From an uncultured Trueperaceae bacterium (GTDB lineage Bacteria; Deinococcota; Deinococci; Deinococcales; Trueperaceae): 64,000 nucleotides of DNA. Positions within the stretch are counted from its first letter, which is position 1; each line of letters opens with the position of its first letter. The stretch is taken from contig CAWCXJ010000005.1 of the NCBI GenBank assembly GCA_963799485.1, positions 64,001 to 128,000 of the forward strand, in the 5' to 3' direction. The position numbers and the translations under genes were made by a program. The notes beneath the pieces were generated by a model. The model made no database searches, was not told the origin of the DNA, and saw nothing but the letters and a program-made list of their open reading frames with translations. Positions 2,453-64,000 of this stretch are shown here, in pieces.

Positions 2453-3115
2453 ATGTCAGACTTCAGGGTAGTGACCCGGACCCAGCGCCTTACCCTGATT
2501 ACTGCCGTTGTCGTCATCGCCGTTACACTCGGTGCGTTTTTGTACCTGAGCCTCAGGCCGGGGCCGAATTTGAGTGTGCAAGATAGCGGTTACGAAGGCC
2601 AACCGACACTCGGCAACGCCCGTGCGCCCGTAAAACTCATCTTGTTCGAAAACTTTCTCTGTGAACGCTGCCAACTGTTTGAGACCGAGGTGTTCGGGCT
2701 ACTAAAACGCGACTATATCGACACCGGCAAAGTCGAGGTGTATTACGTCAACCTGGCGTGGGGCGACGAGACGGCGGTGACGGCGGGCCGGGCCGGAGAG
2801 TGCGCCTTTAGGCAAGACGAGACGGCTTTCTGGGCGTACAAAGATGCTCTTTTTGCGGCGCAAGGGACAGACGGTTGGGCCACGCTCGAGAAGGTAGTAG
2901 AGGTCGCCGAAGGGATTGAGGGGCTCGAGCCCTCTACCTTTAGAACCTGCATCACCGAGGGTCGGACCCAGGCCGAAGTCACGCGCGACCTGACCCTAGC
3001 CGACTACGTGGGCGTAACCGGTACACCGTCGGTCATTATCGGCAGTCAGGGCTTTGAAGCGCCGAGCTACGACGACCTGAAAGCCCAGCTCGACGCACAG
3101 CTAGCCTCTAGATAA
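2453..3115 (+). CDS. Membrane-anchored DsbA/thioredoxin-fold protein
   Basis: N-terminal TM helix, CERC (CxxC) motif, GVTGTP cis-Pro loop. Confidence 0.85.
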   Translation: MSDFRVVTRTQRLTLITAVVVIAVTLGAFLYLSLRPGPNLSVQDSGYEGQPTLGNARAPVKLILFENFLCERCQLFETEVFGLLKRDYIDTGKVEVYYVNLAWGDETAVTAGRAGECAFRQDETAFWAYKDALFAAQGTDGWATLEKVVEVAEGIEGLEPSTFRTCITEGRTQAEVTRDLTLADYVGVTGTPSVIIGSQGFEAPSYDDLKAQLDAQLASR

Positions 3116-3119
3116 TCCG

Positions 3120-4010
3120 TCAAGGCGTCTGCGTTTGAGATTGACGTGTTTGGGCCTGTCCTAGAAAGTAACGATAGGTCTGGTTTTGCGGCGCTAACTG
3201 ACTGGCCCGCCGGTACGCGGTTTCTGCCGCCGTAAAGTTCTTTGCTTCAAACGCCAAACGTCCTAAATACCCCCACGCAGCGGCGTAATCGGGGTTCAGC
3301 GCGGTGGCCCTGGAAAACTTGCGTTCGGCGGCCCCGAGGCGGCCCGCTTCGTAATCGCTGACGCCGCCGTAAAAAGCCTTGGCTGCGCCTAAACCGTATT
3401 CGACGCCTGCACGTGAAAGCTCGAGAAAATACGCCGCGCCTGCGTTGCCGGGTTGCAACTGCTGTACGCGTTGCCAGTAGGGGAGAGCGGCTTCGGGACG
3501 GTCTTGCTCGAGCAAAATTCGCCCCGCCCAGCGCTGCGCCCGCACGCTGCCGGGGACGAGCCGGGTGACGGTGCGGTAGGCTCTAAGCGCCCCGCCGAGG
3601 TCGTTCTGGGTGTAACGGGCGTAGCCGACTTGGGTACCGCTTTGGGCAATCTGGACGCGGGCAGCCGCGTCCAGGGGGCCGCCCGCGTCTGCAAACCTCT
3701 GCCAGATGGCAAACGCCGGGCCGTAAAACCCGGTGACGCCGTACACTTCTGCTAAAAACCGGAGCGCTTCGGGGTTTTCCGGGGCAAGCTTGACCGCCTT
3801 GCGGCCTAACCGGATGGCCTGACGAAAGAGCGGTTGGTCGGGGCGGTAATCGCCGTAAACGTCTAACGCTTCTCTGGCAACGCCCCGCGCTTCGCTCAGC
3901 ACGGCCTGCGCTTCTTGCGGGAGTGGATTTTCCAGTGAAGTGATCTGCGCTGTTACGGGCGCGCTTAAAACAAGCGTGCATAGAGTTGCCAAAACCCACT
4001 TAAATGTCAT
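3120..4010 (-). CDS. Secreted tetratricopeptide-repeat protein
   Basis: ATG at 4010 after an AAGGAG RBS; signal peptide; several TPR-like repeats (ALNPDYAAAWGYLG). Confidence 0.8.
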   Translation of the reverse strand: MTFKWVLATLCTLVLSAPVTAQITSLENPLPQEAQAVLSEARGVAREALDVYGDYRPDQPLFRQAIRLGRKAVKLAPENPEALRFLAEVYGVTGFYGPAFAIWQRFADAGGPLDAAARVQIAQSGTQVGYARYTQNDLGGALRAYRTVTRLVPGSVRAQRWAGRILLEQDRPEAALPYWQRVQQLQPGNAGAAYFLELSRAGVEYGLGAAKAFYGGVSDYEAGRLGAAERKFSRATALNPDYAAAWGYLGRLAFEAKNFTAAETAYRRASQLAPQNQTYRYFLGQAQTRQSQTQTP

Positions 4011-4029
4011 CTGCTTCTCCTTATTCTGG

Positions 4030-4632
4030 TCAAATTGCGCGTTTTTTGAACCAGTCTGAAAATTTTTGCAACGCGCGGGCGCGGTGGCTGACGGCGGCTT
4101 TGGCGTCGTCGCCTGCTTCACCGAAGGTCTGCTGCAAGTCGGTGCTGTAAAAAACCGGGTCGTAGCCGTGCCCGTTGCTGCCCCTTGCTACCCTGGTGAC
4201 ATGCCCGTCACAGCGGCCCTCGAAGGTCTCGGCGTCCCCTTCCGGGGTAACGAAACCCAAGACGCAGACGAACTGCGCGGTGCGGGCGGCTTCGGGGGTG
4301 GCCTCGAGCCGCGCCAGCAGATGCGCGGTGCGCGCCTCGTCCGCCCCAAAGCCCCCGAAACGCGCCGAGTAGAGGCCCGGTGCGCCGCCTAAAGCTTTGA
4401 CCTCGAGTCCTGAATCGTCGCCCAAGCTCGGCAGGCCCGTCGCCTGCATCACAAACGACGCTTTGGTCAGCGCGTTCGCGGCGTAGTTGCTGCCCGTTTC
4501 TTCGGGAAACGCCCCGACGCCCAAGTCACGCGCTGAAACGACCTCCAAGCTGCTGCTTGAAAGCGCCCGCCGAAACTCACGCACCTTGCCTTCGTTCAGG
4601 GTAGCCAGCACAATTGTCACAGGTTTTGTCAC
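4030..4632 (-). CDS. rdgB: Non-canonical purine NTP pyrophosphatase (HAM1 family)
   Basis: ATLNEGKVRE, DDSGLEV, PGLYSAR, GYDPVF, SHRARAL. Confidence 0.93.
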   Translation of the reverse strand: MTKPVTIVLATLNEGKVREFRRALSSSSLEVVSARDLGVGAFPEETGSNYAANALTKASFVMQATGLPSLGDDSGLEVKALGGAPGLYSARFGGFGADEARTAHLLARLEATPEAARTAQFVCVLGFVTPEGDAETFEGRCDGHVTRVARGSNGHGYDPVFYSTDLQQTFGEAGDDAKAAVSHRARALQKFSDWFKKRAI

Positions 4633-5336
4633 AGCGAGCCGCGCACCGTTTCCAAAACTTGCTGCACCGCGCCGATACCCTGCGCCACGAGCTGCACATA
4701 CGTCTCGGCGGGGACGGGTTTGCCCTCCGCGCCGCCCTGCACTTCGATGATGTCGCCGGCGGCGGTCGCCACGACGTTGAGGTCCAACTCGGCTTCGGAA
4801 TCCTCGCTGAACTCCAAATCAACCAGAACTTGGCCTTTGACGAGCCCGACACTGACGGCGGCCAACTCGTGCGTCAGCGGCCATTCGTCGAGCGTGCCGG
4901 CCTTGACGAGTTTGTCGGCGGCGTGGTGCAGCGCGGCGTAACCTGCCAAAATCCCGGCGCACCGGGTGCCGCCGTCGGCTTGCAACACGTCTACGTCAAT
5001 GAGGAGCGTTTTGCCGACAAAGAGCGACAGGTCAACGGTGCCGCGCAGACTCCGCCCGATCAGCCGCTGAATCTCTAATGACCGTCCGCCCGAGTAGAGG
5101 CGTTCGCGTTGTACCCGTTCGGGCGTGCTGCGCGGGAGCATCGCGTATTCCGCCGTGAGCCAGCCTTCACGAACTTTTTTGTTGCGCAGATGCGGCGGCA
5201 GTTTGTTCTCTACCGTGACGGTCGCCAGCACGTGTGTGTCGCCCCATTTGACGAGCGCGGAGCCTTCGGCGAAGCGGTTGAAACCGGGCGTGACGGTAAT
5301 CGGGCGGAGGTCGTTAGGGTTTCGGTCTTGTCTCAT
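4629..5336 (-). CDS. rph: Ribonuclease PH
   Basis: GWLTAEYAMLP, EIQRLIGRSLR, DVLQADGGTR. Confidence 0.95.
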   Translation of the reverse strand: MRQDRNPNDLRPITVTPGFNRFAEGSALVKWGDTHVLATVTVENKLPPHLRNKKVREGWLTAEYAMLPRSTPERVQRERLYSGGRSLEIQRLIGRSLRGTVDLSLFVGKTLLIDVDVLQADGGTRCAGILAGYAALHHAADKLVKAGTLDEWPLTHELAAVSVGLVKGQVLVDLEFSEDSEAELDLNVVATAAGDIIEVQGGAEGKPVPAETYVQLVAQGIGAVQQVLETVRGSL

Positions 5337-5343
5337 AGGTGGC

Positions 5344-6162
5344 TCACAAGGAACTTTCTAAAGTTTTGGGCTCGAGGCTTGTGCGGCTCATCGGGCCGTC
5401 CGGCCCACCCAGCAACCGGGCCGTATGACGATAACTCGGCAGGTCGCCAGTGACAAAATGTTTTACGGTGCCGCTGCCCGGTCGGGGTGTGTTCAGGCCG
5501 AGCCGGGTGAGGTCGGCGGCGACGTTTACGGCGGTCGCTTCAGCGGAATCGACCAGCACCGCGCCGCTCAAAACCTCGTACAAGATGGGTTTGAGCGCCG
5601 GGTAGTGGGTACAGCCTAAAATGACGGCGTCTAAGGGCGGGGCGTCGGCGAGATAGTGCGCTGCCACAAGCCGGGCAATTTTTGTGTCCGACACGCCCTC
5701 CTCGACAATCGGTACAAACAGCGGGCAGGGCTGAGCCCAGACGGTGCAACCGCCCGCTGCCAAACCCCGCTGATACGCCCCCGTGTGGAGCGTACCGACG
5801 GTGCCTAAAACACCGACGCGCCCACCCGGGGCGGCGCGTAAGGCGGCCTCTACGCCGGGTTCGATCACGCCCCAGACGGGGACGGGCAGCAGCGCTGCCA
5901 GGGCCGGCAGGCTCGCTGCCGAGGCGGTGTTACACGCGACGACGATACCTTTGACGCCGTAAGAGACCAGGTAACGGCCGATCTCGAGCGCAAACTCACG
6001 CACCATCTCCAGAGGTTTTGAACCGTACGGAACGCGCGCGGTGTCGCCCAGATAGACGAAGTCCTCGGCAGGCAGCTGTTTTTTGAGTGCGGAGAGAACC
6101 GTCAAGCCGCCGACACCGGAATCGAAGACGCCTAAGGGGGCCGAGTCGAGGGAAAACGCCAT
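5344..6162 (-). CDS. murI: Glutamate racemase
   Basis: FDSGVGGLTV, ACNTAS, LGCTHYP. Start reassigned to the ATG at 6162, downstream of TAAACT. Confidence 0.95.
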   Translation of the reverse strand: MAFSLDSAPLGVFDSGVGGLTVLSALKKQLPAEDFVYLGDTARVPYGSKPLEMVREFALEIGRYLVSYGVKGIVVACNTASAASLPALAALLPVPVWGVIEPGVEAALRAAPGGRVGVLGTVGTLHTGAYQRGLAAGGCTVWAQPCPLFVPIVEEGVSDTKIARLVAAHYLADAPPLDAVILGCTHYPALKPILYEVLSGAVLVDSAEATAVNVAADLTRLGLNTPRPGSGTVKHFVTGDLPSYRHTARLLGGPDGPMSRTSLEPKTLESSL

Positions 6163-6234
6163 GGGGAAGAGTTTAACACCGCAGCCGAGAGTTTTTACGG
6201 TACAGTGCGCTCTTTTGACGGCCAACCTAGGTAG

Positions 6235-7284
6235 CTAAAGCGACGCCTCGGCAAAGGTCGCCATCTCCGCGAGGGCACTAGCTGCACCTTCTAACAGGCC
6301 GAACGCCAGCACCGCGCCGGTGCCTTCGCCGAGCCGGAGGTTTAGGTCGAACAGAGGCTCCAGTCCCAAATACGCCAACTGCACCCGGTGCCCCCGCTCT
6401 TGCGACAGGTGCGAGGCGAACAGGTAATCTTTTACGGCGGGCTCGAGTTCCGCGGCTACGAGCGCCGCCGCCGTAGCGATAAACCCGTCCAGGACGACCG
6501 GCGTTTTAGCGGCTGCCGCGCCGAGATAGAACCCGGTCAGCGCTGCGATTTCAAAGCCGCCCAGACGGGCAAGTGCGTCTAGTGGGTCGGCGACGCTCTC
6601 CCGGTGTTTCGTCAGGGCTTTTTCAACGACCCCGATTTTACGGGCCAGACCTTCGTCGTCAACGCCCGTCCCGCGCCCGGTGACGGCTTCAGCACCGTAT
6701 CCTGTCAGGGGCCCCGTAAAAAAAGCGGTCAGGGCAGCGGCGGCGGTCGTGTTGCCGATGCCCATTTCGCCGCCTGCGAGCAGGTCGGCACCTTTTGAGG
6801 TGAGTTCTTGGGCGGCCCCAATCCCCACCTCACACGCCGCTTCAGCCTCGGCGCGGGTCATCGCCGGGCCGTCCAGCATGTTCTGCGTGCCGCGTGCAAT
6901 TTTACGCGACCAGAAGTTCGGATGCGGCGCAAAGTCGCCGTCCACCCCGACATCGACGATGAGTAGCTCGGCTCCGGCGCTTTTCGCAAGCGCGTTGACG
7001 GCTGCACCCCCCGCTAAAAAGTTCTGCACCATCCCGGCGGTTATCTCGCGCGGATAGGCCGACACACCCGTAACGCCGTGGTCGGCGGCAAAAACGGCGA
7101 TAGCTTTGTTCGTAATGACGGGTTTTACGGTGCCCTGAACGGCGGCGAGGCGGGCGCCGATCCCTTCGAGCCGCCCCAAACTCCCCGGCGGTTTGGTCAG
7201 GGTGGCGTGACGTTCCAGCGCTTTGTGGTAGACCTGCGCGTCGACCTTTTTAATCTGTGCGAGTGTTTGGGCGAGTTCAGTCAA
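6235..7284 (-). CDS. cobT: Nicotinate-nucleotide:dimethylbenzimidazole phosphoribosyltransferase
   Basis: TKPPGSLGRLE, FAADHGV, GEMGIGNTT, LRLGEGTGA. TTG start at 7284 after GGAGG. Confidence 0.95.
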   Translation of the reverse strand: MTELAQTLAQIKKVDAQVYHKALERHATLTKPPGSLGRLEGIGARLAAVQGTVKPVITNKAIAVFAADHGVTGVSAYPREITAGMVQNFLAGGAAVNALAKSAGAELLIVDVGVDGDFAPHPNFWSRKIARGTQNMLDGPAMTRAEAEAACEVGIGAAQELTSKGADLLAGGEMGIGNTTAAAALTAFFTGPLTGYGAEAVTGRGTGVDDEGLARKIGVVEKALTKHRESVADPLDALARLGGFEIAALTGFYLGAAAAKTPVVLDGFIATAAALVAAELEPAVKDYLFASHLSQERGHRVQLAYLGLEPLFDLNLRLGEGTGAVLAFGLLEGAASALAEMATFAEASL

Positions 7285-9301
7285 GAGAAACCTCCGGCAG
7301 TGTGCCTTTAAGCGTTTGCGGCAAGCCGACCACACAAAGCGCCACCGCGTCGGCGGCTGCGGCGACGCGGGCGTTGGCGAGACCCAGCGCGTCGCGGTAA
7401 AGACGGCCCAGTGGATAGGCCGGCACGACGCCGCTCCCGACTTCGTTGGTGACGATGACGAGCGTTTTACGGCCCGCACGAACCGTTTGAATGAGGTCGT
7501 TTACGGCGTCTAAAACGGTTTGAGTCACAGCTTCACCGTCATGTTCGTGCGCGAGCAAGATGTTCGACACCAGCCCCGAGAGGCAGTCGAGCAAAATCAC
7601 TTCTTCAGAGCTTTCGGCAATGGCGGCGGCGGGGGAGAAGGGGGTCTCGAGCGTCCGCCAGCTTTCAGGCCGCCGCGCCCGGTGCGTCTCGATCCGCCGC
7701 GTCATCTCGTCGTCGCCGGCGGCTAACGTTGCCAGATAGAGGGCGTTTTCGCCCCGGCCCAAAAAGTGTGTCACCAACGCCTCGGCGTAACGCGACTTGC
7801 CCGACCGCACGCCGCCTGTCACGAGAATGAGTTGTGAACGGCGTGGTTTTGAGGGTTTGAATACGGCGTCGGTTATTGTGTCCGTGTCGAGGTGCGCTTC
7901 TACATGGTCGGCGAGGGTCTCGAGCGTTTTGTCCAACGCCGCGGCCCGGTCGGTATCCGAGCTTTGAACCCCTAAAGCGCCCAGAAACGCCCGCCGAAAC
8001 GCCGTGTCTTCAAACAGCCCGTGCAGATAGACGCCCGTCACGTTTTTCCGCCGGAAGCCGAGACCGTCTGACAGATACGGTTTCGTCTCGCCCCGGGCGC
8101 GGCTCTGACCGTGGTGGATTTCGTAGCCTGACACCTTTACGTCAGCCGATAAAAGCTCAGCGGTGGTCTGCCGCGTGACTTTCTCGGTTTCCAAGGTCGT
8201 GTCGAGCCCCAACAGTCCCAAGCCCGCAAAACTGCTCCCTTCGCCCTCTTCAACGCCGTGCGGGTCGTTTACGCGTTCCCCGAGCAGTTGCAAGCCGCCG
8301 CACACGCCTAAAATCGGGGTTCCGGCTTGAGCATGTGCCTTGACCGTTTCGGAAAGTCCTGTGCGCCCCAGCCACGCAGCGTCGGCGGCGACGTGTTTCG
8401 ACCCCGGCAAGATGATGAGTCCGGCTCCGGTGAGCGCTTCGGGCGCGTCTACCCAGCGCAAAGACACGCCCGGTTCATGTGCCAGTGCGTCGAATTCGTC
8501 GAAGTTGGAGACGGTAGGCAGCTTGAGCACGGCGACCTGTAAGCCTGCGTCCGGCCCTGTGGTTGATTCGGTGCCGACCTGTAAGGTGTGCGCGTCTTCT
8601 TCGGGTAAAGTAAGTGGCAAGTACGGCACCACGCCGAGGGTTGGGACATTTGTCCGAGCCCTCAGCCACCCCGTCCCGCCCCCCAACAGCTTCGGGTCGC
8701 CGCGAAACTTGTTCAGCACGAAACCCAGCAGCGACGCCCTTTCGTCCTCGTCCAGACACGCCCACGTCCCTAAAAGGTGGGCGAACGCGCCGCCCCGGTC
8801 GATGTCGGCGCACAGCAGGACGCGGGCCTGGGCCTCGAGCGCCACCCGCATATTGACAATATCGCCCGCTTTCAAATTGACCTCAGCAGGACTGCCCGCA
8901 CCCTCGATGACGACCAGCTCGAACTCGCTTAACAAACTGTGAAGTGAACGTTGCACGACGGGCCACAGCGCCGTTTTACGGTCTGTCCAGGGCAATCTTG
9001 CCACCGTCTCGTCGCGTTTACCCAGCACCACGACCTGCGAACGGGTGTCGCCTTCGGGTTTGATCAACACCGGGTTCATCCGCACGTCGGGCGTGACACC
9101 GGCGGCGTGCGCCTGGGTGAGCTGGGCGCGGCCCATCTCCAGACCTGCCGGCGTCACCCCGGCGTTGTTGCTCATGTTCTGCGCCTTGAACGGCGCGACC
9201 CGGACGCCGCGCCGTGCGTAGATTCGGCACAAGGCTGCTGTCAGGTACGACTTGCCCGCGCTCGAGCTGCACCCCTGCACCATCAAAGCCCGCCCCGTCA
9301 C
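7277..9301 (-). CDS. cobQ-cobU: Fused cobyric acid synthase (CobQ) and adenosylcobinamide kinase/guanylyltransferase (CobU)
   Basis: N-terminal PFKAQNMSNN, EGAGSPAEVNL, GVCGGLQ, GYEIH; C-terminal LVTGGVRSGKS, HRARRP, VTNEVGSGVVP; one frame. GTG start overlaps the upstream stop. Confidence 0.9.
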   Translation of the reverse strand: MTGRALMVQGCSSSAGKSYLTAALCRIYARRGVRVAPFKAQNMSNNAGVTPAGLEMGRAQLTQAHAAGVTPDVRMNPVLIKPEGDTRSQVVVLGKRDETVARLPWTDRKTALWPVVQRSLHSLLSEFELVVIEGAGSPAEVNLKAGDIVNMRVALEAQARVLLCADIDRGGAFAHLLGTWACLDEDERASLLGFVLNKFRGDPKLLGGGTGWLRARTNVPTLGVVPYLPLTLPEEDAHTLQVGTESTTGPDAGLQVAVLKLPTVSNFDEFDALAHEPGVSLRWVDAPEALTGAGLIILPGSKHVAADAAWLGRTGLSETVKAHAQAGTPILGVCGGLQLLGERVNDPHGVEEGEGSSFAGLGLLGLDTTLETEKVTRQTTAELLSADVKVSGYEIHHGQSRARGETKPYLSDGLGFRRKNVTGVYLHGLFEDTAFRRAFLGALGVQSSDTDRAAALDKTLETLADHVEAHLDTDTITDAVFKPSKPRRSQLILVTGGVRSGKSRYAEALVTHFLGRGENALYLATLAAGDDEMTRRIETHRARRPESWRTLETPFSPAAAIAESSEEVILLDCLSGLVSNILLAHEHDGEAVTQTVLDAVNDLIQTVRAGRKTLVIVTNEVGSGVVPAYPLGRLYRDALGLANARVAAAADAVALCVVGLPQTLKGTLPEVSLD

Positions 9302-9909
9302 CGTAAACTCTCCGTCAGGTCTTCCAGGTGTGCCACGTCCCCCACCGTTTTGATAATCGCGCCCGCGTCGCCCAAAACGAGTTTGGTCAGGCTCGCCGCG
9401 CCGACCTCGAAACGCCATGCTTGACCGTTGGGGACGCCTGTCAGACCGTAAAGAACGGCCCGGATGGGGCCGCCGTGCGTAAAGGCGAGTACGCGGCCTG
9501 TTTGCGGCAACGCCCCGAGCCACGTCTGGACGCGGGTCTCTAGCTCCCCGTAAGTTTCGCCGTCTGTTGGAGCGTTGCGGTAAGGGTCTTCGTACCAGGC
9601 GTTTACGGCGTCCGCGTCGTTCTCAGCGACCTCTCCCCAGCTTCGGCCTTCCCAAGCGCCAAAGCCGAGTTCGCGTAAGCGGGTCTCGAGCGTGACGTTT
9701 ACGGCGGGAAGTGAGAGCTGCGCCGTTTCAATGGTCCGTTTGAGGTCAGAGCTGTAGACTGCCGTAAAAGATGTATGAGCCAGCCTCGGTGCCAGCTTTT
9801 GCGCCTGCACCCTGCCGGTTTCCGACAAGGGCGGGTCGCCCCAGCCCTGTACGCGGCCCTCGGTGTTCCACACGGTTGCGCCGTGCCGCACGAGCCAGAG
9901 TTCTAGCAT
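9298..9909 (-). CDS. cobC: Histidine phosphatase, probable alpha-ribazole phosphatase
   Basis: LVRHGAT, SSDLKR, ELGFGAWEG, THGGPIR; located in the cob operon. Confidence 0.8.
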   Translation of the reverse strand: MLELWLVRHGATVWNTEGRVQGWGDPPLSETGRVQAQKLAPRLAHTSFTAVYSSDLKRTIETAQLSLPAVNVTLETRLRELGFGAWEGRSWGEVAENDADAVNAWYEDPYRNAPTDGETYGELETRVQTWLGALPQTGRVLAFTHGGPIRAVLYGLTGVPNGQAWRFEVGAASLTKLVLGDAGAIIKTVGDVAHLEDLTESLR

Positions 9910-9916
9910 GGGTTCA

Positions 9917-10945
9917 TCACAGCGCCAACCACTCGAGCAACGCGCTGTTGTCTTCTCGACGTTGGGCGGCCAAGCGGACACAGGCCCTGAGGCCGAAGCT
10001 CGAGGCGTCCCGTACCCGAAACCCGGCGGCTTTCGCCCGCGCCGTAAACCCGGCGGCGTCCCCGACCGCTACGAGAAAAAAGCTCGCCGCACTCGCCCAC
10101 GTTTCAAAGCCCAGGTTTTGTACCCCTGTTTGAAACATTTGGCGAAGCTCGAGCAGCTCAGGAACCGTCTTTTCTACAAACGCTTGGCCTTCAGCACGGC
10201 ACCAGTGAACAGCCGCCGCAGCGGGCGTACTTACGGGCCAGGGCGGAGCTGCGCGGCGGAGGGTCTCAGCAATCTCGGGCGGCGCAGCGGCGTACCCGGC
10301 GCGAAGTCCGGCAATGCCAAAGGTTTTCGTTAAGGGAAAAAGCGTTACGGCAGCTTCGGGTATTTCCCGGGTGGCGGCGCTCAGCTCGAGATACGCCGCG
10401 TCAATCACCAGGAGGGCGTCGTGTTTTTGGCAGGTGTCAGCAACTTCTGCCAAAGATTCTTTACCCCAAGCGTGCCCGGTCGGGTTGTTCGGTTGACAGA
10501 GCCAAACCAGCGTAGGCCGGATGTTTTGAACGGCGTAAACGAGTGCGGCAACGTCCGGCTCAGCACCCTTCGCGTAAACGTTGCACATAGCTATCCTCGC
10601 ACCGTAAAGCTGCGCGGCCCGCACGTACTCGCCAAAACTCGGCGCGGCGACGAGGACACCTCTGCCGGGCTGCAAATAACACGCTGAGAGTCGGTAGATC
10701 AGCTCTGCAGCGCCGCCCAGCACGATATTTTCCAGAGGAACGCTATGAAAACGGGCTGCTGCTGTTCGCGCTTCGCCGTAACTCGGGTCGGGGTAGCTCG
10801 AGACCTCAACTGCTCCCAGCTGCCCCAGCAGTTCAGCAGGTGGCCCGAACGGGTTGCTGTTGACGCTAAAGTCGAACCGAACATGCGCGCCGTCCGGCCC
10901 GCCGTGCGCCGCGTAGGGTGGGAGCGTCAAGACGGGTTCAGGCAC
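9917..10945 (-). CDS. cobD: PLP-dependent threonine-phosphate decarboxylase
   Basis: HGG...DFSVNSNPFG, PNNPTG, LTKTFGIAGLRAGY. Confidence 0.85.
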   Translation of the reverse strand: MPEPVLTLPPYAAHGGPDGAHVRFDFSVNSNPFGPPAELLGQLGAVEVSSYPDPSYGEARTAAARFHSVPLENIVLGGAAELIYRLSACYLQPGRGVLVAAPSFGEYVRAAQLYGARIAMCNVYAKGAEPDVAALVYAVQNIRPTLVWLCQPNNPTGHAWGKESLAEVADTCQKHDALLVIDAAYLELSAATREIPEAAVTLFPLTKTFGIAGLRAGYAAAPPEIAETLRRAAPPWPVSTPAAAAVHWCRAEGQAFVEKTVPELLELRQMFQTGVQNLGFETWASAASFFLVAVGDAAGFTARAKAAGFRVRDASSFGLRACVRLAAQRREDNSALLEWLAL

Positions 10946-11867
10946 GCCTTAGCCTCGTAAGCGCGTACAGGCCGAAACCGAACAGGACGGTCAATTTAAT
11001 CACGTGTTTTGTCCGGTCGATGTCTGCGGCTGCCGGGGTGCGGCCCGTTTCGTTGAGGGTGTAGACGCCGCGCTTCTCGAGCCTTACCCCTAACCCTTTA
11101 GCGGTCAGCGCCATCGTCACACCTCCGTTTGGGCTCGGGGTACGGTTGCAGTCTCTGAGCATCAGCGCCCAGCTTCTACGCGCCGGTGCGCCGGTTAGGA
11201 GTAGCGCCGGGTAGAGCAGTGCCGCCGCGAGGCGGGCCGGAACAAAGTTCAGTACGTCGTCTGTGCGAGCGGCAAATTTGCCGAAATACTCCAACTCCGG
11301 CGTGCGGTAACCGAGTACGGCGTCGGCGGTGTTGACAAACCGGTAAACCGCCGCCCCCGGTAAGCCGAACAGCGCAAAATAAAAGAGCGGCGCAACGATG
11401 CTGTCGGTCAGGTTTTCAGCGAGCGAAGAGACAGCTGCCCCGGCAACCTCACCTTCAGAAAGCGCTGAAGTGTCGCGGCTGACGAGGTGCCACGCCAAGA
11501 GCCGCCGCGCTTCCGGTAAGTTTTCAGCAAGGAGTGCGTCCTGTACACTGTCTCCGGCTTCTAAAAGGGCCGAAAGACTGAAGAGGGGTTTGAGCATCAG
11601 CGCTGTGCCGAAGCCTTTTACGGGCCGGGGGAGACGGGCGAGTCCTTTTTCCACGGCCCAAGCCGCCGCGCCGCACGCCGCCGCGCCGATAAAGACGAAC
11701 CCTGCACCTGTCATAAACTGCTTGCGCGGGGACGAGGAGAGTTGCAACAACCAGTCCTTCAGCCCCAAATACTGCCCCATTCCCACAACCGGGTGAAACC
11801 GCGTCGGCGGTTCGCCAAAACGGGCGTCGATTAAAACGCTCAGCAGCGCCGCGCCACCCTTAGCCAT
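10938..11867 (-). CDS. cbiB: Adenosylcobinamide-phosphate synthase
   Basis: GEPP..FHPV, LVSRDT, SLAENLTD, YRFVNTADA, TPSPNGG. Confidence 0.93.
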   Translation of the reverse strand: MAKGGAALLSVLIDARFGEPPTRFHPVVGMGQYLGLKDWLLQLSSSPRKQFMTGAGFVFIGAAACGAAAWAVEKGLARLPRPVKGFGTALMLKPLFSLSALLEAGDSVQDALLAENLPEARRLLAWHLVSRDTSALSEGEVAGAAVSSLAENLTDSIVAPLFYFALFGLPGAAVYRFVNTADAVLGYRTPELEYFGKFAARTDDVLNFVPARLAAALLYPALLLTGAPARRSWALMLRDCNRTPSPNGGVTMALTAKGLGVRLEKRGVYTLNETGRTPAAADIDRTKHVIKLTVLFGFGLYALTRLRRA

Positions 11868-12433
11868 CAGTGTTCGATGCCGCGCTGCGCCGGAACATCG
11901 GCGTCGAAGGCGTGCTTGATTTTCTTCATCTCGGTGACGGTATCGGCGGCGGCAACCAGTTTTTCGTGTGCGTCGCGGCCTGTCAAGACGACGTGCAGCT
12001 TTTCCGGGCGTGACGCCAACGTTTCCACCACGTCGTCGGGACTAATCCAACCCCACGATACCGGATAGGTCACTTCGTCGAGGACAATCAGGTCGTACTG
12101 ACCGCTTAAGATAGCCGCCTTCGCCGCCTCCCAGCCGGCAACCGCGAGCGCCTGACTCTGATCCAAATCTTGTGAGCGCCACGAAAAACCGTCGCCGAGA
12201 CCTGCGAACGGAATACCCAGCTCGCTCAGCGCGCGGTGTTCGCCGAACTTGGCCCCTTCGTGCTTGATAAATTGAAACAGCCGCGTTTTGAGGCCGCGCC
12301 CGTGTGCGCGCATCAGTAGACCTAGCGCCGCCGTCGTCTTACCTTTGCCGTGCCCGGTATTGATGATGACCAGCCCGCGCCGTTCGCCCTGAGCTTTTAC
12401 GGTTTTACGGTCGGTGGGGGGTGTTTGGGACAT
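11867..12433 (-). CDS. cobO: Cob(I)alamin adenosyltransferase
   Basis: [28 protein letters not shown]. Confidence 0.93.
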
Positions 12434-12447
12434 CGTTTCTCCAATGT

Positions 12448-13141
12448 TTAGCTGGGGGTGAGAGCTGCTAACAGCGCTTTGTAGACCGTTTCGGCAACCA
12501 GAAAGCCGGGTGGGGTGGCGAGCCCGGCGTAAAGGCTGTAGGGGTTTGGGTTCAAGTTGATGATGGTTACTGTGTCGGTGGTCGTGCCGGTGGCGGTTTC
12601 GCCGAAACGGGTGGTAACGCCCGCTTTTCTGAAGGCAGCGGCTTTTGCTTCGGTGGCGCTCTGCACCGCGCCGATAAGGGCGGCGGGGCTCAGGCGACCC
12701 TCGAGCAACACAATGATATTGACTGTACCCGCAGGCTCTCCCAGCGTAAACCGTCCCCCCGCCGCTGCTGCGTTGCCGACGCCCGCCGTAACCAGGGCGT
12801 GAACCCGCCAGCCTGAACGCTCAGCCGTCACAACCTGCACATCAGCCATGCCGACCGCCGTGATGAGCCCGACGGTTGTTTCGGGCGAGAGTCCCAAACG
12901 CGCCACATACTGCGTCATATCGGCTTCGGGGTCGTCACTAGAATGGTCACTGTGCCAGTTTTTATCGACGCTCCGGTTGACGACGGCGCGGCGGAGGCCG
13001 AAACCGCCGTTTAGGGGGGCGCTCGAAGACCCCCTCACAAGCTTCGTCAAACGTGATGATTAGATGATGTCCCCGGCTCTCAGTCGGTAAGGTGCGCTCA
13101 ACCTTAACGCCGGGAATAGCCAGGTTTACGGCGTCGGTCAT
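12448..13141 (-). pseudogene. cbiZ: Adenosylcobinamide amidohydrolase with one frameshift near 13030-13040 (pseudogene or sequencing error)
   Basis: Starts MTDAVNLAIPG at 13141 (ATGA overlap with cobS). After a G5 run it continues in another frame as SSAPLNGG...GLITAV...TAGVGN...GTVNI...ATEAK...ATGTTTD. Confidence 0.85.
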
Positions 13142-13866
13142 AGGAGTACCGCGACGCTCAGCATAACGGCTTCGCTCGTCTCGATCAGTGCGCCGTAAGC
13201 GTCGCCGCCGAGCCCGCCTAGCCGGTTTGACAGCCACGGAGCGAGCAGCGAAATGGTAAAAAGTGCTGCGAACGTCAACCCCAAAAAAGCCGTCAGCGTT
13301 TGCGTCAGGACAGCTGCGCCAAGTCCCAGCGCCAAACCCAAGACGAGTGGAAACCACGCAGCAGCGAGTCCCGGTTGGGTGTTTTGTCCAAGTCGGCTCG
13401 AGCCGTGCGTCCTCCCCAGCGCCAGCGGTAATATGATAAGTGTCCGGCTCAAAAGCAAAGTGAGCAGGAGAAGGGCGGGTTGCACGCTCCCGAGCACCGC
13501 CGCCTTGACGAGTAACAGCACGCCACCTGCGGCAAGCGCAAACGCACCCAAATGCGGGTCTTTAGCGATCTTCTGACGTTCTTCGGGCGACTTGCTCGCG
13601 AACGCTGCGTCCGCCACGTCGCAAAATCCGTCGAAGTGGAGCGCGCCGGTCAAAAGTAGCGATGTGCCCAGCAGGAGCGCACCGCGTAGCGTGTCCGGCA
13701 GCGGCCCCAACATCCACGCTGCGCCCCACAAAATAGCGCCGAGCAGCAGCCCGACGAGCGGATACGCCCGCACGCTCCGCCGCGCGTCGCCCTCTCGCCA
13801 CACGTTTACGGGGGGCAGCGGCAGCGTCGTTAAAAACGTCAGGGCGACGTGCAGGGCGCGGACCAT
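13138..13866 (-). CDS. cobS: Adenosylcobinamide-GDP ribazoletransferase (cobalamin synthase)
   Basis: ALTFLTTLP, TGALHFDGFCDVAD, KDPHLGAF, GGLGGDAYGA. Confidence 0.93.
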   Translation of the reverse strand: MVRALHVALTFLTTLPLPPVNVWREGDARRSVRAYPLVGLLLGAILWGAAWMLGPLPDTLRGALLLGTSLLLTGALHFDGFCDVADAAFASKSPEERQKIAKDPHLGAFALAAGGVLLLVKAAVLGSVQPALLLLTLLLSRTLIILPLALGRTHGSSRLGQNTQPGLAAAWFPLVLGLALGLGAAVLTQTLTAFLGLTFAALFTISLLAPWLSNRLGGLGGDAYGALIETSEAVMLSVAVLL

Positions 13867-13872
13867 GTGAGG

Positions 13873-14760
13873 CTAGCGGGTTGCGGGACCGAATACGCTG
13901 GGATGGAGCGCCCGCGCAAAAAACGCTACCGCGTCGCCGATGCGTGGCCCCGGGCGGCTGATGGCGTCATTGATGACCGAATCTGTCGGAACGACGCGCT
14001 CATTTTTTACGGCGTCGATGCCCGCCCAACCGGGGCGCTCCGGCAGCGTTGCCGCGTCGCCTTCGCTGGTGATAATAACTTCGGGGTCGGCGGCGACAAT
14101 ATATTCGGGATCTAACTGCGGAAAGTCGCCTAAGCCTGCCGCGACGATGTTTTGGCCCCCGGCGCGGCTTAAGAGCACCCCGATAAACGAGTTCGGCCCG
14201 ACGCTGTAGGGGGTCGGGTCGATCTCGTAGTAGACCGAAACCGGCTCGAGCCCCTCGGCCCGCTCGCGTATCGCCCGGATACGCCCCTGAACTCGCCCGC
14301 TCAGGAGCGCCGCTTCGGTTTCACGGTTTAAGAGCGCACCCAGCACCGTAAACTTTTGGAACACTTCGCCAAAGGTCTGCGCGGTTCCGGCGTAGACGGG
14401 GATACCGAGTTGCCGCAGCGCCCCCGCGAGGTCGGACGATTCATCGACCAACACCAGGTCGGGGTTCAGGGCGACGATGGCCTCGAGGTTCGGTTCGAAC
14501 GCGCTGCCGAGTTTAGGCAACTCTTTAATACTTGCCGGAAAATTGCTGTAGGTATCGACGCCGACGAGTTTGTCGCAGGCGTTTAAGGCGCAGAGCGTTT
14601 CGGTATGACTCGGAATCATCGCCACGACGCGCGTCGGTTCGGCGGTGAGCGTCACTTCAAACCCCAAGTCGTCGGTGACCGTGTACGGATAGGTCGTTGC
14701 GTTAGCGACGAATCCAAACCATAAAACCACCGCAAATAAAACTTTGATAGAGCCCTTCAT
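13873..14760 (-). CDS. btuF: Cobalamin ABC transporter substrate-binding protein
   Basis: Signal peptide; PSHTETLCAL, LEAIVALNPDLV, SRPGPRI; first gene after the riboswitch. Confidence 0.85.
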   Translation of the reverse strand: MKGSIKVLFAVVLWFGFVANATTYPYTVTDDLGFEVTLTAEPTRVVAMIPSHTETLCALNACDKLVGVDTYSNFPASIKELPKLGSAFEPNLEAIVALNPDLVLVDESSDLAGALRQLGIPVYAGTAQTFGEVFQKFTVLGALLNRETEAALLSGRVQGRIRAIRERAEGLEPVSVYYEIDPTPYSVGPNSFIGVLLSRAGGQNIVAAGLGDFPQLDPEYIVAADPEVIITSEGDAATLPERPGWAGIDAVKNERVVPTDSVINDAISRPGPRIGDAVAFFARALHPSVFGPATR

Positions 14761-14894
14761 GGTGCCTCCTCGGGCACCCGAGCAGCGGCAATTTGTTGAG
14801 GGTTAGGCCGACACCGTAAAAGTGGCTACTGACAAGCAGCTACCGTCATACCGTGAGCGCCGCCCGCCTCGGTCCGCGCCAGGGGTGCGTCTAG

Positions 14895-15010
14895 CGTCAA
14901 CACGCCGGTATTCGGGCTTCGCCGCGAGGTTTTGCGTTAAGACCTGTAGACGTTACCGTTGCGGGACAGCGCCGGACTTTCACCGGACTTCCCCAGCGTG
15001 GTGCGTGAGG
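14895..15010 (-). ncRNA. Cobalamin riboswitch
   Basis: Minus strand GGGAAGTCCGGTGAAAGTCCGGCGCTGTCCCGCAACGGTAA...AAGCCCGAATACC, closed by ACGCTGG/CCGGCGT pairing; upstream of btuF-cob. Confidence 0.92.
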
Positions 15011-15522
15011 GAGTTTACGGCGAAGGGGGCGAGGTTGTCAATTACAGGTGTCGATTACAGGCGTTAATCAAGCCGGTTTTGCGGGAGAGAAACCGATATC
15101 GGGAGAACCGTCCGGTTCGGGACTCGAGCCCCCTCTTTAGAGGTCCGTGTACCCGACTCCGACCTTCATCAAAATATCGGGGGTAGTACGGTTGTGCGCC
15201 CCGGCGACTATCCTAAAACAAAATAAACGTGCGCGCAGACGTACTTTCTCGGCTACGGCAAGGCTCTGTGTGTACTGCTTTTCTGATACAGAAGTCCCTA
15301 TCTATTTACGTGTTTTAAGCTTACGGTGAAACACAAGTCACGTAGCTACCTGAACCGTCCGTGCAAATCAGGCCGAGGGCGTGTCGGGGCTACTGCCAGC
15401 GCATGAAAACATGATGGCAGTGTTGCAACGACCCCAGTGCGACGCTTTGGCGGTTTTGTAGCAGAGAGGCGTTTATCAAGCAAAACCAGGTCAGCGCCGT
15501 TTGGCAAGCCGAACCGCATCAG

Positions 15523-16602
15523 TTGCGGGCGATTCTCAAGGGTCTCGCCGAAGGTCTCGTGACCTTCGACTTGCGCGGCGACGTCCTCAACCTCAACGCG
15601 TCGGCGCGCCGTCTTTACGGTATCGGAGAAACGACCCGCAACCTTGCAGTTGCCGAGCTCGCGGCGTACTGGTATCCGGACGGGAACGCGGTTCCGGACG
15701 AGGCGACGCCCGCTGCGCGGGTGCTGCGCGGTGAGACCTTTACGGCGTATGAGCTGTGGACGCGCCCGCATCACGGTGCAAACGGAGGGACAAGTAGTGG
15801 CAGCGCGAGCAAGTCCGGGCGTAATGAGGGGCGGTGGTTGGGGGCGTACAGCGGTACTCAGGTCGAAGATTCGCAGACGCTCGGGGTGCTGACGGTAAGC
15901 GACGTCACCAGGGAGCGCGAGCTCGCGGCCCGCTTTAGAGCCGCTTTTACGGTCAACCCGACCGCTATCAGCATCCTCCGGCTTAGCGACCTGCGTTTCA
16001 ACGACGTCAACGAAAGTTTTCTCGAGCTGACCGGCTACACCCGCGACGAGGTGGTCGGCAAGACCGCTGCCGACCTCAAGCTGTTTTTGGAGTACGGCAA
16101 ACGCGACGCCGCGCTCCGGCAGATGCGGCGCAACCGCAGCGACCAGGTTACCGAACACGAGGCGAGCTTGCAAACGAAAACCGGCGAGCAGCGCGAGGTT
16201 TCAAGTGAAGGCCGGGTGATTTTCTTCGACAGCGACCCGCACCTGATCGACACCTATATAGATATTACCGACCGTAAACGCTCCGAGCGCGAGCTGATGC
16301 AGGCGATTCAGGCGACGATGAGCGACACCTCGTGGTTTACCCGCGTGGTGATGGAAAAGCTTGCCGAGATACGCGCGGGTGGCGGGGTGCAACCGGGTCT
16401 CGAGCAGCTCACCAGGCGTGAACAAGGAGTCCTGGAGCTGCTCGCCCAGGGCTACGGCAATGAGCAGATTGCCCGCGAGTTGGGTTTGTCGAAACACACC
16501 GTCCGCAACTACGTGGCGACCATCTACAGCAAGCTCGAGGTCAAGTCGCGGGCCGAGGCGGTGGTCTGGGCGCGCGAGCGCGGGCTTATCTTTCCGGTCT
16601 AG
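15523..16602 (+). CDS. PAS-domain LuxR-family transcriptional regulator
   Basis: Two PAS-like segments (VNESFLELTGYTRDEVVGK) and a C-terminal HTH (LTRREQGVLELLAQGYGNEQIARELGLSKHTVRNY). Start codon uncertain. Confidence 0.88.
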   Translation: MRAILKGLAEGLVTFDLRGDVLNLNASARRLYGIGETTRNLAVAELAAYWYPDGNAVPDEATPAARVLRGETFTAYELWTRPHHGANGGTSSGSASKSGRNEGRWLGAYSGTQVEDSQTLGVLTVSDVTRERELAARFRAAFTVNPTAISILRLSDLRFNDVNESFLELTGYTRDEVVGKTAADLKLFLEYGKRDAALRQMRRNRSDQVTEHEASLQTKTGEQREVSSEGRVIFFDSDPHLIDTYIDITDRKRSERELMQAIQATMSDTSWFTRVVMEKLAEIRAGGGVQPGLEQLTRREQGVLELLAQGYGNEQIARELGLSKHTVRNYVATIYSKLEVKSRAEAVVWARERGLIFPV

Positions 16603-20962: not shown

Positions 20963-20979
20963 GGTGCAGAAGGAGACTT

Positions 20980-46291: not shown

Positions 46292-46358
46292 ACTTCTGTT
46301 AGCTCATAGCGATGAACTCACCTAAAGCCACCTACGTCCAAAGGGTATACTGTCCTGC

Positions 46359-48819: not shown

Positions 48820-49014
48820 ACTCGAGAAGGTGAACGTAGCGAATTGTACAGGTGCCGGGCGCGCGTCAGGTTGGAAAACTGTGACCGTGCAAGCAGACAG
48901 GGACGCCACCAACAACTCCGGGGTGGACGGTGCCGGAGCCGAAACAAGTGAGAACGTTTCTCTGCGTCCCGGCTTGGTCGGCGGCAGCGTCGGCTCGAGG
49001 CGCGCCGTAACCTT

Positions 49015-51109: not shown

Positions 51110-51243
51110 CACGGCGTGAGGTTTCGGCTTTTTGGGTGTCGACTTGCGCCTGTGTCCCGTAAGCTCTCACAGTACAAGGGCCGGGTTTTGCAGCGAAGGT
51201 GTCTTGCAGTTGGCTGGACGGGCAAAGAGACTGAGCACTGCCA

Positions 51244-51384
51244 AGCCTCGAGCCCGGTGGCAGTATCTTCGGCGACGGCAGCGCCATTATGATGCACACC
51301 GAGGGCGACGATTACAGCACCGACCCTTCAAGAGCGGCGACCGGCTCGCGTGCGGCGTTATCAAACAGGCGAGCGGCAACTAGC
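51244..51384 (+). pseudogene. sodC: Cu/Zn superoxide dismutase C-terminal remnant
   Basis: SLEPGGSIFGDGSAIMMHTEGDDYSTDPS, then after a frameshift SGDRLACGVI. Confidence 0.8.
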
Positions 51385-51424
51385 TCGGGTCGGCCCGTAA
51401 AAAACGGGGCAAAGATTTACGGCG

Positions 51425-51472
51425 TTTTACGGCGCGTTGAAACTACAAAACCGACTGCAAAGCGCCGTAAAA
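51425..51472. terminator. Inverted pair of GCCGTAAAA motifs between convergent genes
   Basis: TTTTACGGCGC (51425-51435) and GCGCCGTAAAA (51462-51472) form a perfect 11-bp inverted repeat. Confidence 0.55.
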
Positions 51473-60785: not shown

Positions 60786-61544
60786 TCAGCGCCCGCCGGA
60801 AACATCGATAAAGGTTCCGGTAACGTAAGCCGCTTCTTCTGAGAGCAACCAGAGAACGGCGTGAGCGACCTCCCCCGGTTGTCCGCCCCGCCCCAGCGGA
60901 ACCGTTGGCGCAAGCCGGTTTATGCGCGCCGGTTCACCGCCCTGCGCGTGGATGTCGGTATCAATGATGCCCGGTCTGACGCCGCCCACCCGGATACCCT
61001 CCCCCGCGACTTCATGTGCGAGCCCGACCGTCATGGTGTCGAGTGCGCCTTTGCTGGCGGCGTAGTCGATGTATTCCCCCGGCGACCCGGTACGCGCCGC
61101 GACCGACGAGACGTTGACGATTGCGCCCCCCGCGCCGCCGTAACGCCGTGACATTCGCCGCACCGCCTCCCGCGCGCAGAGAAATGCGCCGAAAACGTTG
61201 GTTGAAAAAACGCGCGTCAGGCGGGCCATATCCAGAGCCTCGAGCCGAGTTTGCCGCTCGAGCGTCGCGGCATTATTGACAAGGGCGCGGAGCGTACCGA
61301 AATCGTCCACCGCCGTAAAAAGCCGTAAAACTTCCGCCTCAACCGAAACGTCCGCTTGAACCGCCACGGCGTCCGCCCCGCTCGCTCGCAATTCCGAGAC
61401 GAGCGCGTCGGCCTCCTCGCGCCGTTGCCGATAGTTGAGGCACACCGCGTAACCTCGAGCCGCCGCCAATCGCGCGGTCGCTGCGCCGATACCGCGACCG
61501 CCGCCGGTTATCAGTACCACTTTGCGTTCGGAAGAGACAGTCAT
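60786..61544 (-). CDS. Short-chain dehydrogenase/reductase
   Basis: TGGGRGIG, NNA, YAASKG. Confidence 0.93.
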   Translation of the reverse strand: MTVSSERKVVLITGGGRGIGAATARLAAARGYAVCLNYRQRREEADALVSELRASGADAVAVQADVSVEAEVLRLFTAVDDFGTLRALVNNAATLERQTRLEALDMARLTRVFSTNVFGAFLCAREAVRRMSRRYGGAGGAIVNVSSVAARTGSPGEYIDYAASKGALDTMTVGLAHEVAGEGIRVGGVRPGIIDTDIHAQGGEPARINRLAPTVPLGRGGQPGEVAHAVLWLLSEEAAYVTGTFIDVSGGR

Positions 61545-63210: not shown

Positions 63211-63263
63211 CCCGGCTCTAAGCTGCTGAGGTGGTAGCCTGAACGGACTACAGGAGGCCACAC

Positions 63264-63452
63264 GTGAGGCTCGGATTCTGGGAAATTGTACTGATTGTCA
63301 TCGTTATCGTTTTGCTTTTTAGCGGTAACCGCATCGCGCGGCTGATGGGCGCGTTTCGGCGCTCCAAGACGGAGTATAGCGCGGGGCTCGAGGAACCCGT
63401 AGACGCGGAGTTTAAGGACGTGTCAGAGGAAAAGGTCGAGCAAAAAAGGTAA
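63264..63452 (+). CDS. tatA: Twin-arginine translocase TatA/E family subunit
   Basis: LGFWEIVLIVIVIVLLFSG..IARL amphipathic helix; AGGAGG RBS. Confidence 0.75.
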   Translation: MRLGFWEIVLIVIVIVLLFSGNRIARLMGAFRRSKTEYSAGLEEPVDAEFKDVSEEKVEQKR

Positions 63453-63562
63453 GCAGTTCCGTTTGTGAAGTAGAGACGCTAAAAATCCGTAGCGATGTTT
63501 TGCAAGCTAAACCGCGACAAGGTCACCGGCTAAAGGATTTGCAGTAGCGTTGCCGAGCCACG

Positions 63563-63705
63563 CGAGCGGCGCTAAACTTCCGGCGACGGCGCTGGATTGG
63601 GTCGGGGTAACAGGGCGCAGCAGCACGCCCAAAGCAGGTTTGCGAAACTGCGTCAGGGCTTGCCGGAGGGCGTGGTCGGGAGTGATGAGAGTGGCAAGTT
63701 GTACT
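63563..63705 (-). pseudogene. Diverged fragment of the 5' end of the 46359 aroE-like gene
   Basis: VQLATLITPDHALRQALTQFRKPALGVLLRPVTPTQSSAVAGSLAPL versus MQLVALITPDHALRNALAQFRKPALGVLMHPVTPTEFSAVAGSLAPL. Confidence 0.85.
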
Positions 63706-64000
63706 TGGGGGAGTGCAACTTGAGGCCGAGCGCCAAAGCTAAACATCTGCTGGTTTACGGTCTGTGGTTCATAAAAGCGGTGTTTCGCAGCGTTTCAGGG
63801 TGTGAGCGTACCTGGAGCGTTCCAGGGGCCAAAAAATATGCTACCTTGGTCTTATGTACGCCGCGCCGCACCCATTATTTACGTTTTACGCTTGCGGTTT
63901 TGTGGCACGAACGTCCCTGCACGCCCGCTAACCCACCCAACCTGATACAGTTTTTATATCTTTGCGGCCCCGGAACATCTGCGCCGTAAACTCGTCCGCT

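Follow-up and report, generated by a model that had tools for sequence, protein, structure and literature searches.

What accounts for the very frequent recurrence of one short DNA word, CCGTAAA (TTTACGG on the opposite strand), in a genome of the Trueperaceae, and could the word serve, as has been suggested, as a signal for sequence-specific DNA uptake? The stretch that raises this question, called the window below, comprises 64,000 nucleotides from an uncultured Trueperaceae bacterium (assembly GCA_963799485.1, contig CAWCXJ010000005.1, positions 64,001 to 128,000). The original prediction, made from the letters of the window, took the word for a candidate uptake sequence akin to the DNA uptake sequences (DUS) of Neisseria and the uptake signal sequences (USS) of the Pasteurellaceae, and pointed to a ComZ/minor-pilin locus in the same window as a possible link to competence. 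To our knowledge, Neisseriaceae and Pasteurellaceae are the only families with established sequence-specific DNA uptake, and our literature search turned up neither an uptake sequence nor an over-represented word described for Truepera, Trueperaceae or Meiothermus, and no uptake sequence for the Deinococcota. We conclude with high confidence that the excess of CCGTAAA is real, sequence-specific, exerted at the level of DNA and specific to one clade, and that the word has many, not all, of the hallmarks of an uptake sequence.

The window contains 78 exact copies of CCGTAAA/TTTACGG, 34 on the plus strand and 44 on the minus strand, in good agreement with the roughly 75 copies (about 34 and 43) counted by hand for the original prediction. 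In 100 dinucleotide-preserving shuffles of the window the word occurred 10.01 times on average (standard deviation 3.54, maximum 22), and none of the 100 shuffles reached 78; the strong excess claimed at the outset therefore holds, although the five to six copies then expected by chance were somewhat too low a figure. The host genome, designated G000, is an assembly of 3.66 Mb in 15 contigs with 59% GC and a contamination estimate of 4.6%. CCGTAAA is found there in 3,274 copies (1,667 plus and 1,607 minus), approximately 0.9 per kb, i.e. 3.4 to 9.9 times the whole-genome Markov expectations (331, 553, 724 and 961 copies for orders 0, 1, 2 and 3), and the 9-mer CGCCGTAAA is present in 1,113 copies against 29 (order 0) to 165 (order 3) expected. 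Strand-symmetry-matched controls are far rarer genome-wide (CGGTAAA, 1,231 copies; CGGCGTAAA, 267 copies), and among the 128 words composed of three strong bases followed by four weak bases CCGTAAA ranks at the top, the runner-up having 1,967 copies. Around the copies there is a preference for C at position -2 (frequency 0.50), G at -1 (0.54) and A at +7 (0.47), and for nothing else out to ±15, so that the full form of the word is (C)(G)CCGTAAA(A). Because the flanking information ends at -2 and +7, the word is neither a dispersed repeat element nor a two-part site. A bipartite type I target was likewise ruled out, a second half-site being absent within 15 bp.

The excess is not an artefact of codon or dipeptide usage, which was ruled out by three gene-wise shuffles and by the counts in reading frames and in spacers. 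Gene calling with a self-trained codon model gave 3,410 genes, which make up 85% of the genome. Under a synonymous shuffle of each gene, 2,693 CCGTAAA copies were observed against 732 ± 26 expected (3.7-fold), and 939 copies of CGCCGTAAA against 119 (7.9-fold), and the over-representation thus survived the codon- and dipeptide-preserving check proposed with the original prediction. Permutation of the codons within each gene gave expectations of 524 and 67 for the same two words, and a dinucleotide-preserving synonymous shuffle gave 1,154 and 267. When all 7-mers were ranked against the plain synonymous null, CCGTAAA came second after CTCGAGC; against the dinucleotide-preserving synonymous null it came third, behind two CTCGAG words. 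An uptake sequence is expected in hundreds to thousands of copies, well above composition- and codon-aware nulls, and the counts of CCGTAAA agree with this.

As had been noticed in the window, the copies lie in different frames and in intergenic DNA. All five stop-free frames are occupied, with 401 to 683 copies each, and the spacers are as dense in the word as the genes: 82% of the copies are in genes, at 0.87 per kb, against 0.98 per kb outside them, and the spacers alone hold 540 copies where 60 to 148 are expected. Codon choice is pulled towards the word in every frame. Among leucine codons the share of TTA is 27% before CGG vs 7.5% overall, among arginine codons CGT makes up 47.5% before AAA vs 18% overall, and among phenylalanine codons TTT rises to 93% before ACG from 61.5% overall. 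The profile around gene starts, around gene ends and across gene deciles is flat, with no local rise.

Nor does the word follow the direction of replication. Regions of positive GC skew carry 940 plus and 975 minus copies and regions of negative GC skew 677 and 589; the plus-strand fraction is 0.42-0.57 in each of the 10 contig stretches examined; and at the one clear skew switch, on contig C7, the counts are 142/149 on one side and 130/99 on the other. Since GC skew is weak in G000, the balance within contigs carries most weight, and neither against GC skew nor within any contig examined was there a sign of the replichore polarity that the original prediction had asked to be checked.

The distribution of the word among relatives was scored by counting GCCGTAAAA against reversed-word controls in the genomes of 128 Trueperaceae species. 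A strong excess was found in only three of them, G000 (832 vs 85), G005 (702 vs 78) and G001 (365 vs 98), and G022 was mildly raised (65 vs 15), as was the unpublished genome G120, from which no conclusion is drawn; a scan of 41 genomes gave the same distribution. Sharing by related species, which is expected of an uptake sequence, was found for G000, G005 and G001 and for no other of the 128. The LepA proteins of these three are 96% identical to one another and 90-92% identical to those of the motif-poor congeners G002, G003 and G004. The ratio of CCGTAAA to its synonymous-shuffle expectation is 3.7 in G000 and, in 400-kb samples, 2.7 in G005, 2.2 in G001, 1.18 in G002 and 1.00 in G041, a member of another Trueperaceae lineage. 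The three motif-rich genomes have 57-59% GC and G002 68.5%, and the most GC-rich of the three sharers, G000, has the highest word density. The words TCTAAA and CTAAAA are 2.3 to 5.7 times their synonymous-shuffle expectation in G000, G001, G002, G005 and G041, whatever the GC content. Since G041 has a similar GC content (58.8%, third-position GC 0.74) and the same TCTAAA/CTAAAA excess and yet no excess of CCGTAAA, neither AT drift nor A-runs account for the word; a by-product of a TAAA or A-run excess was ruled out in the same way, the general excess occurring in all five genomes tested and that of CCGTAAA in three. The CCGTAAA excess is that of a young word confined to one small Trueperaceae clade.

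The origin of the sites was traced in 400-kb samples centred on lepA and aligned to G000, with aligned DNA identities of 79.6% (G005), 77.9% (G001) and 72.8% (G002). Of the G000 sites, 89 of 211 are unchanged in G005 (0.27 for words of the same composition), 58 of 231 in G001 (control 0.21) and 2 of 171 in G002 (control 0.11). The differences from G002 amount to 2.69 substitutions per site vs 2.10 at control words, and the aligned G002 states are diverse, the commonest being CCGTAGA (21 of 171), with CCGCAAG and CCGCAAA also frequent. Because G002 rarely has the word and its states are diverse, the sites must have arisen through a wide variety of substitutions since the divergence from G002. 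In the relatives a few sites show alignment gaps, and the commonest aligned states are gap-free and of the same length; these mainly same-length substitutions, together with a flank logo that holds nothing beyond -2 to +7, ruled out repetitive extragenic palindromic (REP) elements and miniature inverted-repeat transposable elements (MITE) as the source. Where the encoded peptide is identical, the word itself is kept at 78 of 119 sites in G005 (control 0.406, p = 5.5e-8) and at 51 of 108 sites in G001 (control 0.340, p = 0.006). Where the word differs, an amino-acid change is commoner than at controls (60 of 101 vs 0.442 and 96 of 153 vs 0.462, respectively), in line with the location of uptake sequences at residues of low conservation as described in the excerpted text of PMC2817400, where they are also said to be missing from genes without homologues. 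Segments of higher identity are denser in the word in the comparisons with G005 (rho 0.34, rank 7 of 400 words) and G001 (0.275, rank 1 of 400), not in that with G002 (rank 232); the correlation fits gene flow among the sharers and, equally well, the replacement of segments by foreign DNA, and was counted for neither. Synteny in this GTDB genus is scrambled: the 400-kb lepA-centred stretches map to at least five G000 contigs, and the G000 sequence covered in common by stretches of different genomes is only 2.7-22 kb.

DNA of foreign type is poor in the word. Two contigs with a phage-like layout (many small genes and methylases of the C5 class), C2 of 88 kb and C3 of 53 kb, have CCGTAAA densities of 0.25-0.27 per kb, which is the codon-expected baseline, vs 0.66-1.10 on the nine contigs larger than 70 kb, and in CTCGAG they are as dense as is typical of the family. 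They could represent resident phages or plasmids, or else be contigs of a relative that were binned here by mistake. From a 24-kb stretch of 66% GC the word is missing altogether, and the scarcity in recently acquired DNA that is characteristic of uptake sequences was thus seen both on C2 and C3 and in this high-GC stretch.

Within the window the features that bear on the word, with the minor-pilin operon added for context, are the following (coordinates are those of the window).

2628..63990, both strands: all CCGTAAA/TTTACGG copies, 78 in number, 26 of them with the 9-mer CGCCGTAAA and 20 with GCCGTAAAA.
2628..16278: dense stretch of 35 copies, 2.55 per kb.
12396..12410, minus strand: same-strand pair of copies 8 bp apart, within the corrinoid adenosyltransferase gene.
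20875..24795, plus strand: minor-pilin operon adjoining lepA, encoding a 722-aa DUF4900 protein and three proteins with type IV pilin N-termini.
29716-38077: V-ATPase operon, 4 copies.
45300..51380: copy-free stretch of 6 kb, with a transposase-type helix-turn-helix gene, hypothetical genes and a phosphodiester glycosidase-like gene.
51395..51471: cluster of four copies (+ - - +) in the spacer of two convergent genes, with one inverted pair that could form a 13-bp stem.
54827-57031: clpC, no copies.
61313..61329, plus strand: same-strand pair of copies 10 bp apart, within a short-chain dehydrogenase gene.

The count of 35 in the dense stretch agrees with the approximate figure of the original prediction, and the sparseness it had remarked in the V-ATPase operon and clpC is borne out; the four-copy cluster and the close pairs it had listed are real, and its positions are mostly one base too low. 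The genes of the dense stretch encode a thioredoxin-like protein, a tetratricopeptide repeat (TPR) protein, RNase PH, a racemase and the cobalamin salvage operon. The cluster at 51395..51471 folds no better than its shuffles (z-score -0.8), and the single terminator-like site between 51000 and 51600 lies outside it, at 51387-51370 on the minus strand (shuffles, 0.6 ± 0.7). A promoter or terminator element was ruled out by the flat gene-end profiles, the statistics of close pairs given below and the unremarkable fold of this cluster.

The explanation that we rank first, tentatively and at less than an even chance, is a molecular drive like that of DUS and USS, the known process that yields such a combination of properties, in which uptake and recombination may act as the reader of the word. 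Such a reader would recognize the DNA word itself, not codons or peptides, and would favour changes that create or keep it. The competence machinery would prefer to bind or import DNA carrying the word, recombination of the imported DNA would slowly enrich the chromosome in it, and the drive would have acted in one small clade (G000, G005 and G001) after its split from the motif-poor congeners. Like DUS and USS, CCGTAAA is short and non-palindromic, occurs about once per kb equally on both strands, in genes and spacers, is scarce in foreign DNA and is common to related species; it also occupies variable positions of proteins and biases the use of codons and peptides, as in the account of uptake sequences excerpted from PMC2817400, which gives 1,471, 765 and 1,892 copies for H. 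influenzae, A. pleuropneumoniae and N. meningitidis, respectively. The survival of the excess under codon shuffles, the lack of polarity and the independence of frame all speak for uptake, and G000 possesses ComEC, DprA and the minor-pilin operon.

Several results weigh against uptake. In Haemophilus the 9-mer, and in Neisseria the 10-mer, is a hundred to a thousand times as frequent as chance predicts; the excess of CCGTAAA, 4- to 8-fold by codon-aware nulls and 38-fold vs order 0, is far below these figures, and its core is shorter (7 bases, 9-10 with flanks). A null that also freezes the pattern of strong and weak bases in each codon leaves a 1.5-fold excess for the 7-mer and 2.35-fold for the 9-mer, values to be taken as lower bounds from a very conservative null because most bases of the word are immovable under it. 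DNA uptake in Thermus and Deinococcus is not known to show any sequence preference. In Haemophilus the uptake sequence is spaced more evenly than at random, and the CCGTAAA copies are clumped (counts per 10 kb have a variance of 21.7 at a mean of 9.0, and short gaps are over-abundant); unlike DUS and USS they do not form inverted terminator pairs, close pairs at 60 bp or less being inverted in 103 cases and direct in 164, and only three of the 128 species of the family share the word. At 0.42, the conservation of the word between G000 and G005 is not beyond what individual control words reach (95th percentile 0.47). ComEC and DprA occur just as well in the motif-poor G002 and in G041, and because genomes without the word also have them the competence genes do not discriminate. 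The one candidate receptor locus examined is not conserved either: the minor-pilin/DUF4900 cluster is 47-55% identical in G005 and replaced by an unrelated cassette in G001, though both share the word, and it is 39-51% identical in the motif-poor G002; by sequence it has no counterpart among solved structures. The 722-aa protein of this operon has a DUF4900 match and a pilin-like N-terminal helix; with a DUF4900 match only and no PDB sequence match, its identity as ComZ was not supported. The ComZ/minor-pilin locus, strongly diverged in one sharer and replaced in the other, therefore lends no support to the link to the word that the original prediction had drawn. As an observation in its own right, the minor-pilin operon beside lepA is hypervariable, with 39-55% identity between congeners whose LepA proteins are 90-96% identical.

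A second word of the same kind was found in a neighbouring lineage of the family. AAGAGGT/ACCTCTT is present in 5,851 and 6,219 copies in G041 and G042, respectively (reversed-word controls 713 and 645), two genomes of the other Trueperaceae lineage with LepA 87-88% identical. The density of AAGAGGT(C) is approximately 1.3-1.45 per kb in these genomes, equally on both strands; the word occurs at 1.25 per kb in spacers and 1.24 per kb in genes, and its synonymous-shuffle ratio is 3.8. The frames are used more unevenly than by CCGTAAA (209, 110, 31, 27, 21 and 13 copies). In family, density and behaviour AAGAGGT matches CCGTAAA, to which it is unrelated in sequence, and the two are mutually exclusive: the CCGTAAA ratio is 1.0 in G041, and in G000 AAGAGGT exceeds its control only about 3-fold. 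A different word in the neighbouring lineage is loosely reminiscent of the DUS dialects described in the excerpt of PMC3630211, unlike which the second word here is unrelated to the first. That neighbouring lineages have unrelated words suggests a process common to the family, with a specificity that can be exchanged.

Such replaceability is also what would be expected if the word were the footprint of a sequence-specific modification, repair or defence system, in which an enzyme of the type IIL, type III or bacteriophage exclusion (BREX) kind recognizes the asymmetric 7-mer and sites are created or protected by a repair or conversion bias linked to it. The targets of type IIL, type III and BREX enzymes are typically asymmetric and 6-7 bp long, and the wholly different word of the sister lineage would fit a swappable specificity module. 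In a mixed form of this explanation, methylated words may mark "self" DNA in transformation. Six-base palindromes are strongly avoided (GGCGCC, CGGCCG, CCGCGG, GCCGGC and CGTACG words are at approximately 0.06-0.3 of the synonymous-shuffle expectation), which points to heavy past or present restriction pressure. Methyltransferase families are richer in the sharers, the matches to PF02384/PF01555/PF00145, which are profile matches and not copy numbers, being 6/1/3 in G000, 11/4/3 in G001 and 10/2/1 in G005 vs 2/0/0 in G002 and 3/0/0 in G003. G000 also has an intact type IIL enzyme of the MmeI family (contig C5, 165411-168350, 37 kb past the window end) of 979 aa with N-terminal, helicase-spacer, methylase and target-recognition domains. 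In G001 and G005, however, the MmeI-like protein is represented by fragments of only 31-32% identity, an intact orthologue being found in neither, and a methyltransferase common to all three motif-rich genomes was not found with PF02384, PF01555, PF00145 and PF02086 or with two G000 proteins as queries. The second of these queries, a 1,084-aa N6/N4 methylase, was matched only in G001, as two pieces in separate open frames (the Pfam scan at this match shows one in-frame TAA), and not in G005. No shared D12-class enzyme was found, and the methylases of the C5 class in G000 sit on the phage-like contigs, where the word is at its codon-expected baseline and not avoided. None of the single-mismatch neighbours of the word is strongly depleted, unlike the pattern left by very-short-patch repair, and a sink of the very-short-patch kind was ruled out on that ground. 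A mechanism by which an asymmetric restriction site would be multiplied is not known to us. The parallel would be the proposed link between the cyanobacterial HIP1 (highly iterated palindrome 1) and methyltransferases, and in the excerpt of 10.1101/2024.09.10.611283 HIP1 improves transformation in a methylation-dependent manner. Taken together, we regard this origin of the word as unlikely, though as the main rival to uptake. A defence-like cluster of G000 at C4:100470-110583 encodes a ResIII helicase (1,076 aa), the N6/N4 methylase (1,084 aa), a PIN protein and a SNF2 helicase (966 aa).

The word might also have no reader at all and be a neutral by-product of context-dependent mutation bias, accumulating as a low-mutability "sink" while the GC content of the clade fell from about 68%, as in G002, to 57-59%. 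The difference in GC between the sharers and G002 agrees with this, as do the commonest G002 states, CCGTAGA, CCGCAAG and CCGCAAA, all of them GC-to-AT transitions away from the word, the general enrichment of TAAA-ending words under the synonymous shuffle and the reduction of the excess to 1.5-fold once the strong/weak pattern is kept; the low density in foreign DNA would suit any time-dependent process. Such a bias is nonetheless distinctly unlikely to be the cause, because G041 at 58.8% GC (third-position GC 0.74), with its TCTAAA/CTAAAA excess, has a CCGTAAA ratio of 1.00 (G002, 1.18), the most GC-rich sharer is the densest in the word, the specificity spans 7-10 bases with symmetric controls 2.7 to 4.2 times rarer, substitutions relative to G002 are more numerous at the sites than at controls (2.69 vs 2.10) and many of them change the protein, and the silent positions of the word are kept above control among the sharers. 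This last retention, together with the clumping of the sites and their even distribution relative to genes and on both strands, would also be accounted for by selection of binding sites for an abundant, clade-specific chromosomal protein, either nucleoid-associated or engaged in genome maintenance, that aids chromosome organisation or repair. We consider such a protein quite improbable: no candidate was found in this analysis, the fast turnover of sites among the three genomes suits drive better than site-by-site selection, and we know of no bacterial nucleoid protein that needs thousands of exact 7-mers. A strand-polarised recombination or segregation signal of the kind of Chi, the FtsK orienting polarizing sequences (KOPS) or the architecture imparting sequences (AIMS) is close to excluded; CCGTAAA resembles these lineage-varying words in being short, asymmetric and over-represented, but they co-orient with replication and it does not, its strands being balanced in the 10 contig stretches and on both sides of the C7 skew switch. 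The weakness of the GC skew does not rescue polarity, because the bias would remain visible in any contig confined to a single replichore.

It is conceivable, if rather doubtful, that Trueperaceae lineages each have their own "self" word (CCGTAAA in one, AAGAGGT in the other), read by a swappable specificity determinant of transformation or recombination, possibly via methylation. Were this true, it would be the first sequence-specific DNA uptake outside the Proteobacteria, and switches between unrelated words would act as gene-flow barriers between young lineages. If uptake is the process, the Deinococcota would provide a third independent case and the tagging of "self" would have evolved repeatedly; moreover, with a young tag present in three species beside a lineage with an unrelated word, its origin could be dated and its reader sought in close genomes. 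If the word is instead read by a chromosomal protein, or by a system for modification or repair, this would explain clade-specific, hyper-abundant words beyond codon usage. In either case such words distort codon choice and even protein sequence, and the density of the word can be put to practical use in telling native from phage-like or recently acquired DNA in these metagenome-derived genomes.

CCGTAAA also invites comparison with HIP1 (GCGATCGC), which it resembles in being hyper-abundant, short and present in all frames and in spacers, and in its possible link to methyltransferases and transformation, insofar as this is described in the excerpts of PMC4390886, PMC5861425 and 10.1101/2024.09.10.611283. 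Unlike HIP1, which is 15- to 300-fold over-represented according to the excerpt of PMC5861425, CCGTAAA is non-palindromic, and a cognate methyltransferase shared by the three genomes was not found among four Pfam families. The nearer analogue of HIP1 in G000 is CTCGAG, a family-wide HIP-like palindrome. CTCGAG is not mentioned in the excerpted text of Elhai 2015 (PMC4390886), nor are Thermus and Deinococcus. CTCGAG, which extends to GCTCGAGC, is the most over-represented word of G000, with 7,252 sites (3.5 times the synonymous shuffle), 120 of them in the window. It occurs at approximately 0.5-3 per kb in almost all Trueperaceae-type loci examined, over a range of 37-75% GC, and is nearly absent from Deinococcus loci, and words containing TCGA are enriched in general.

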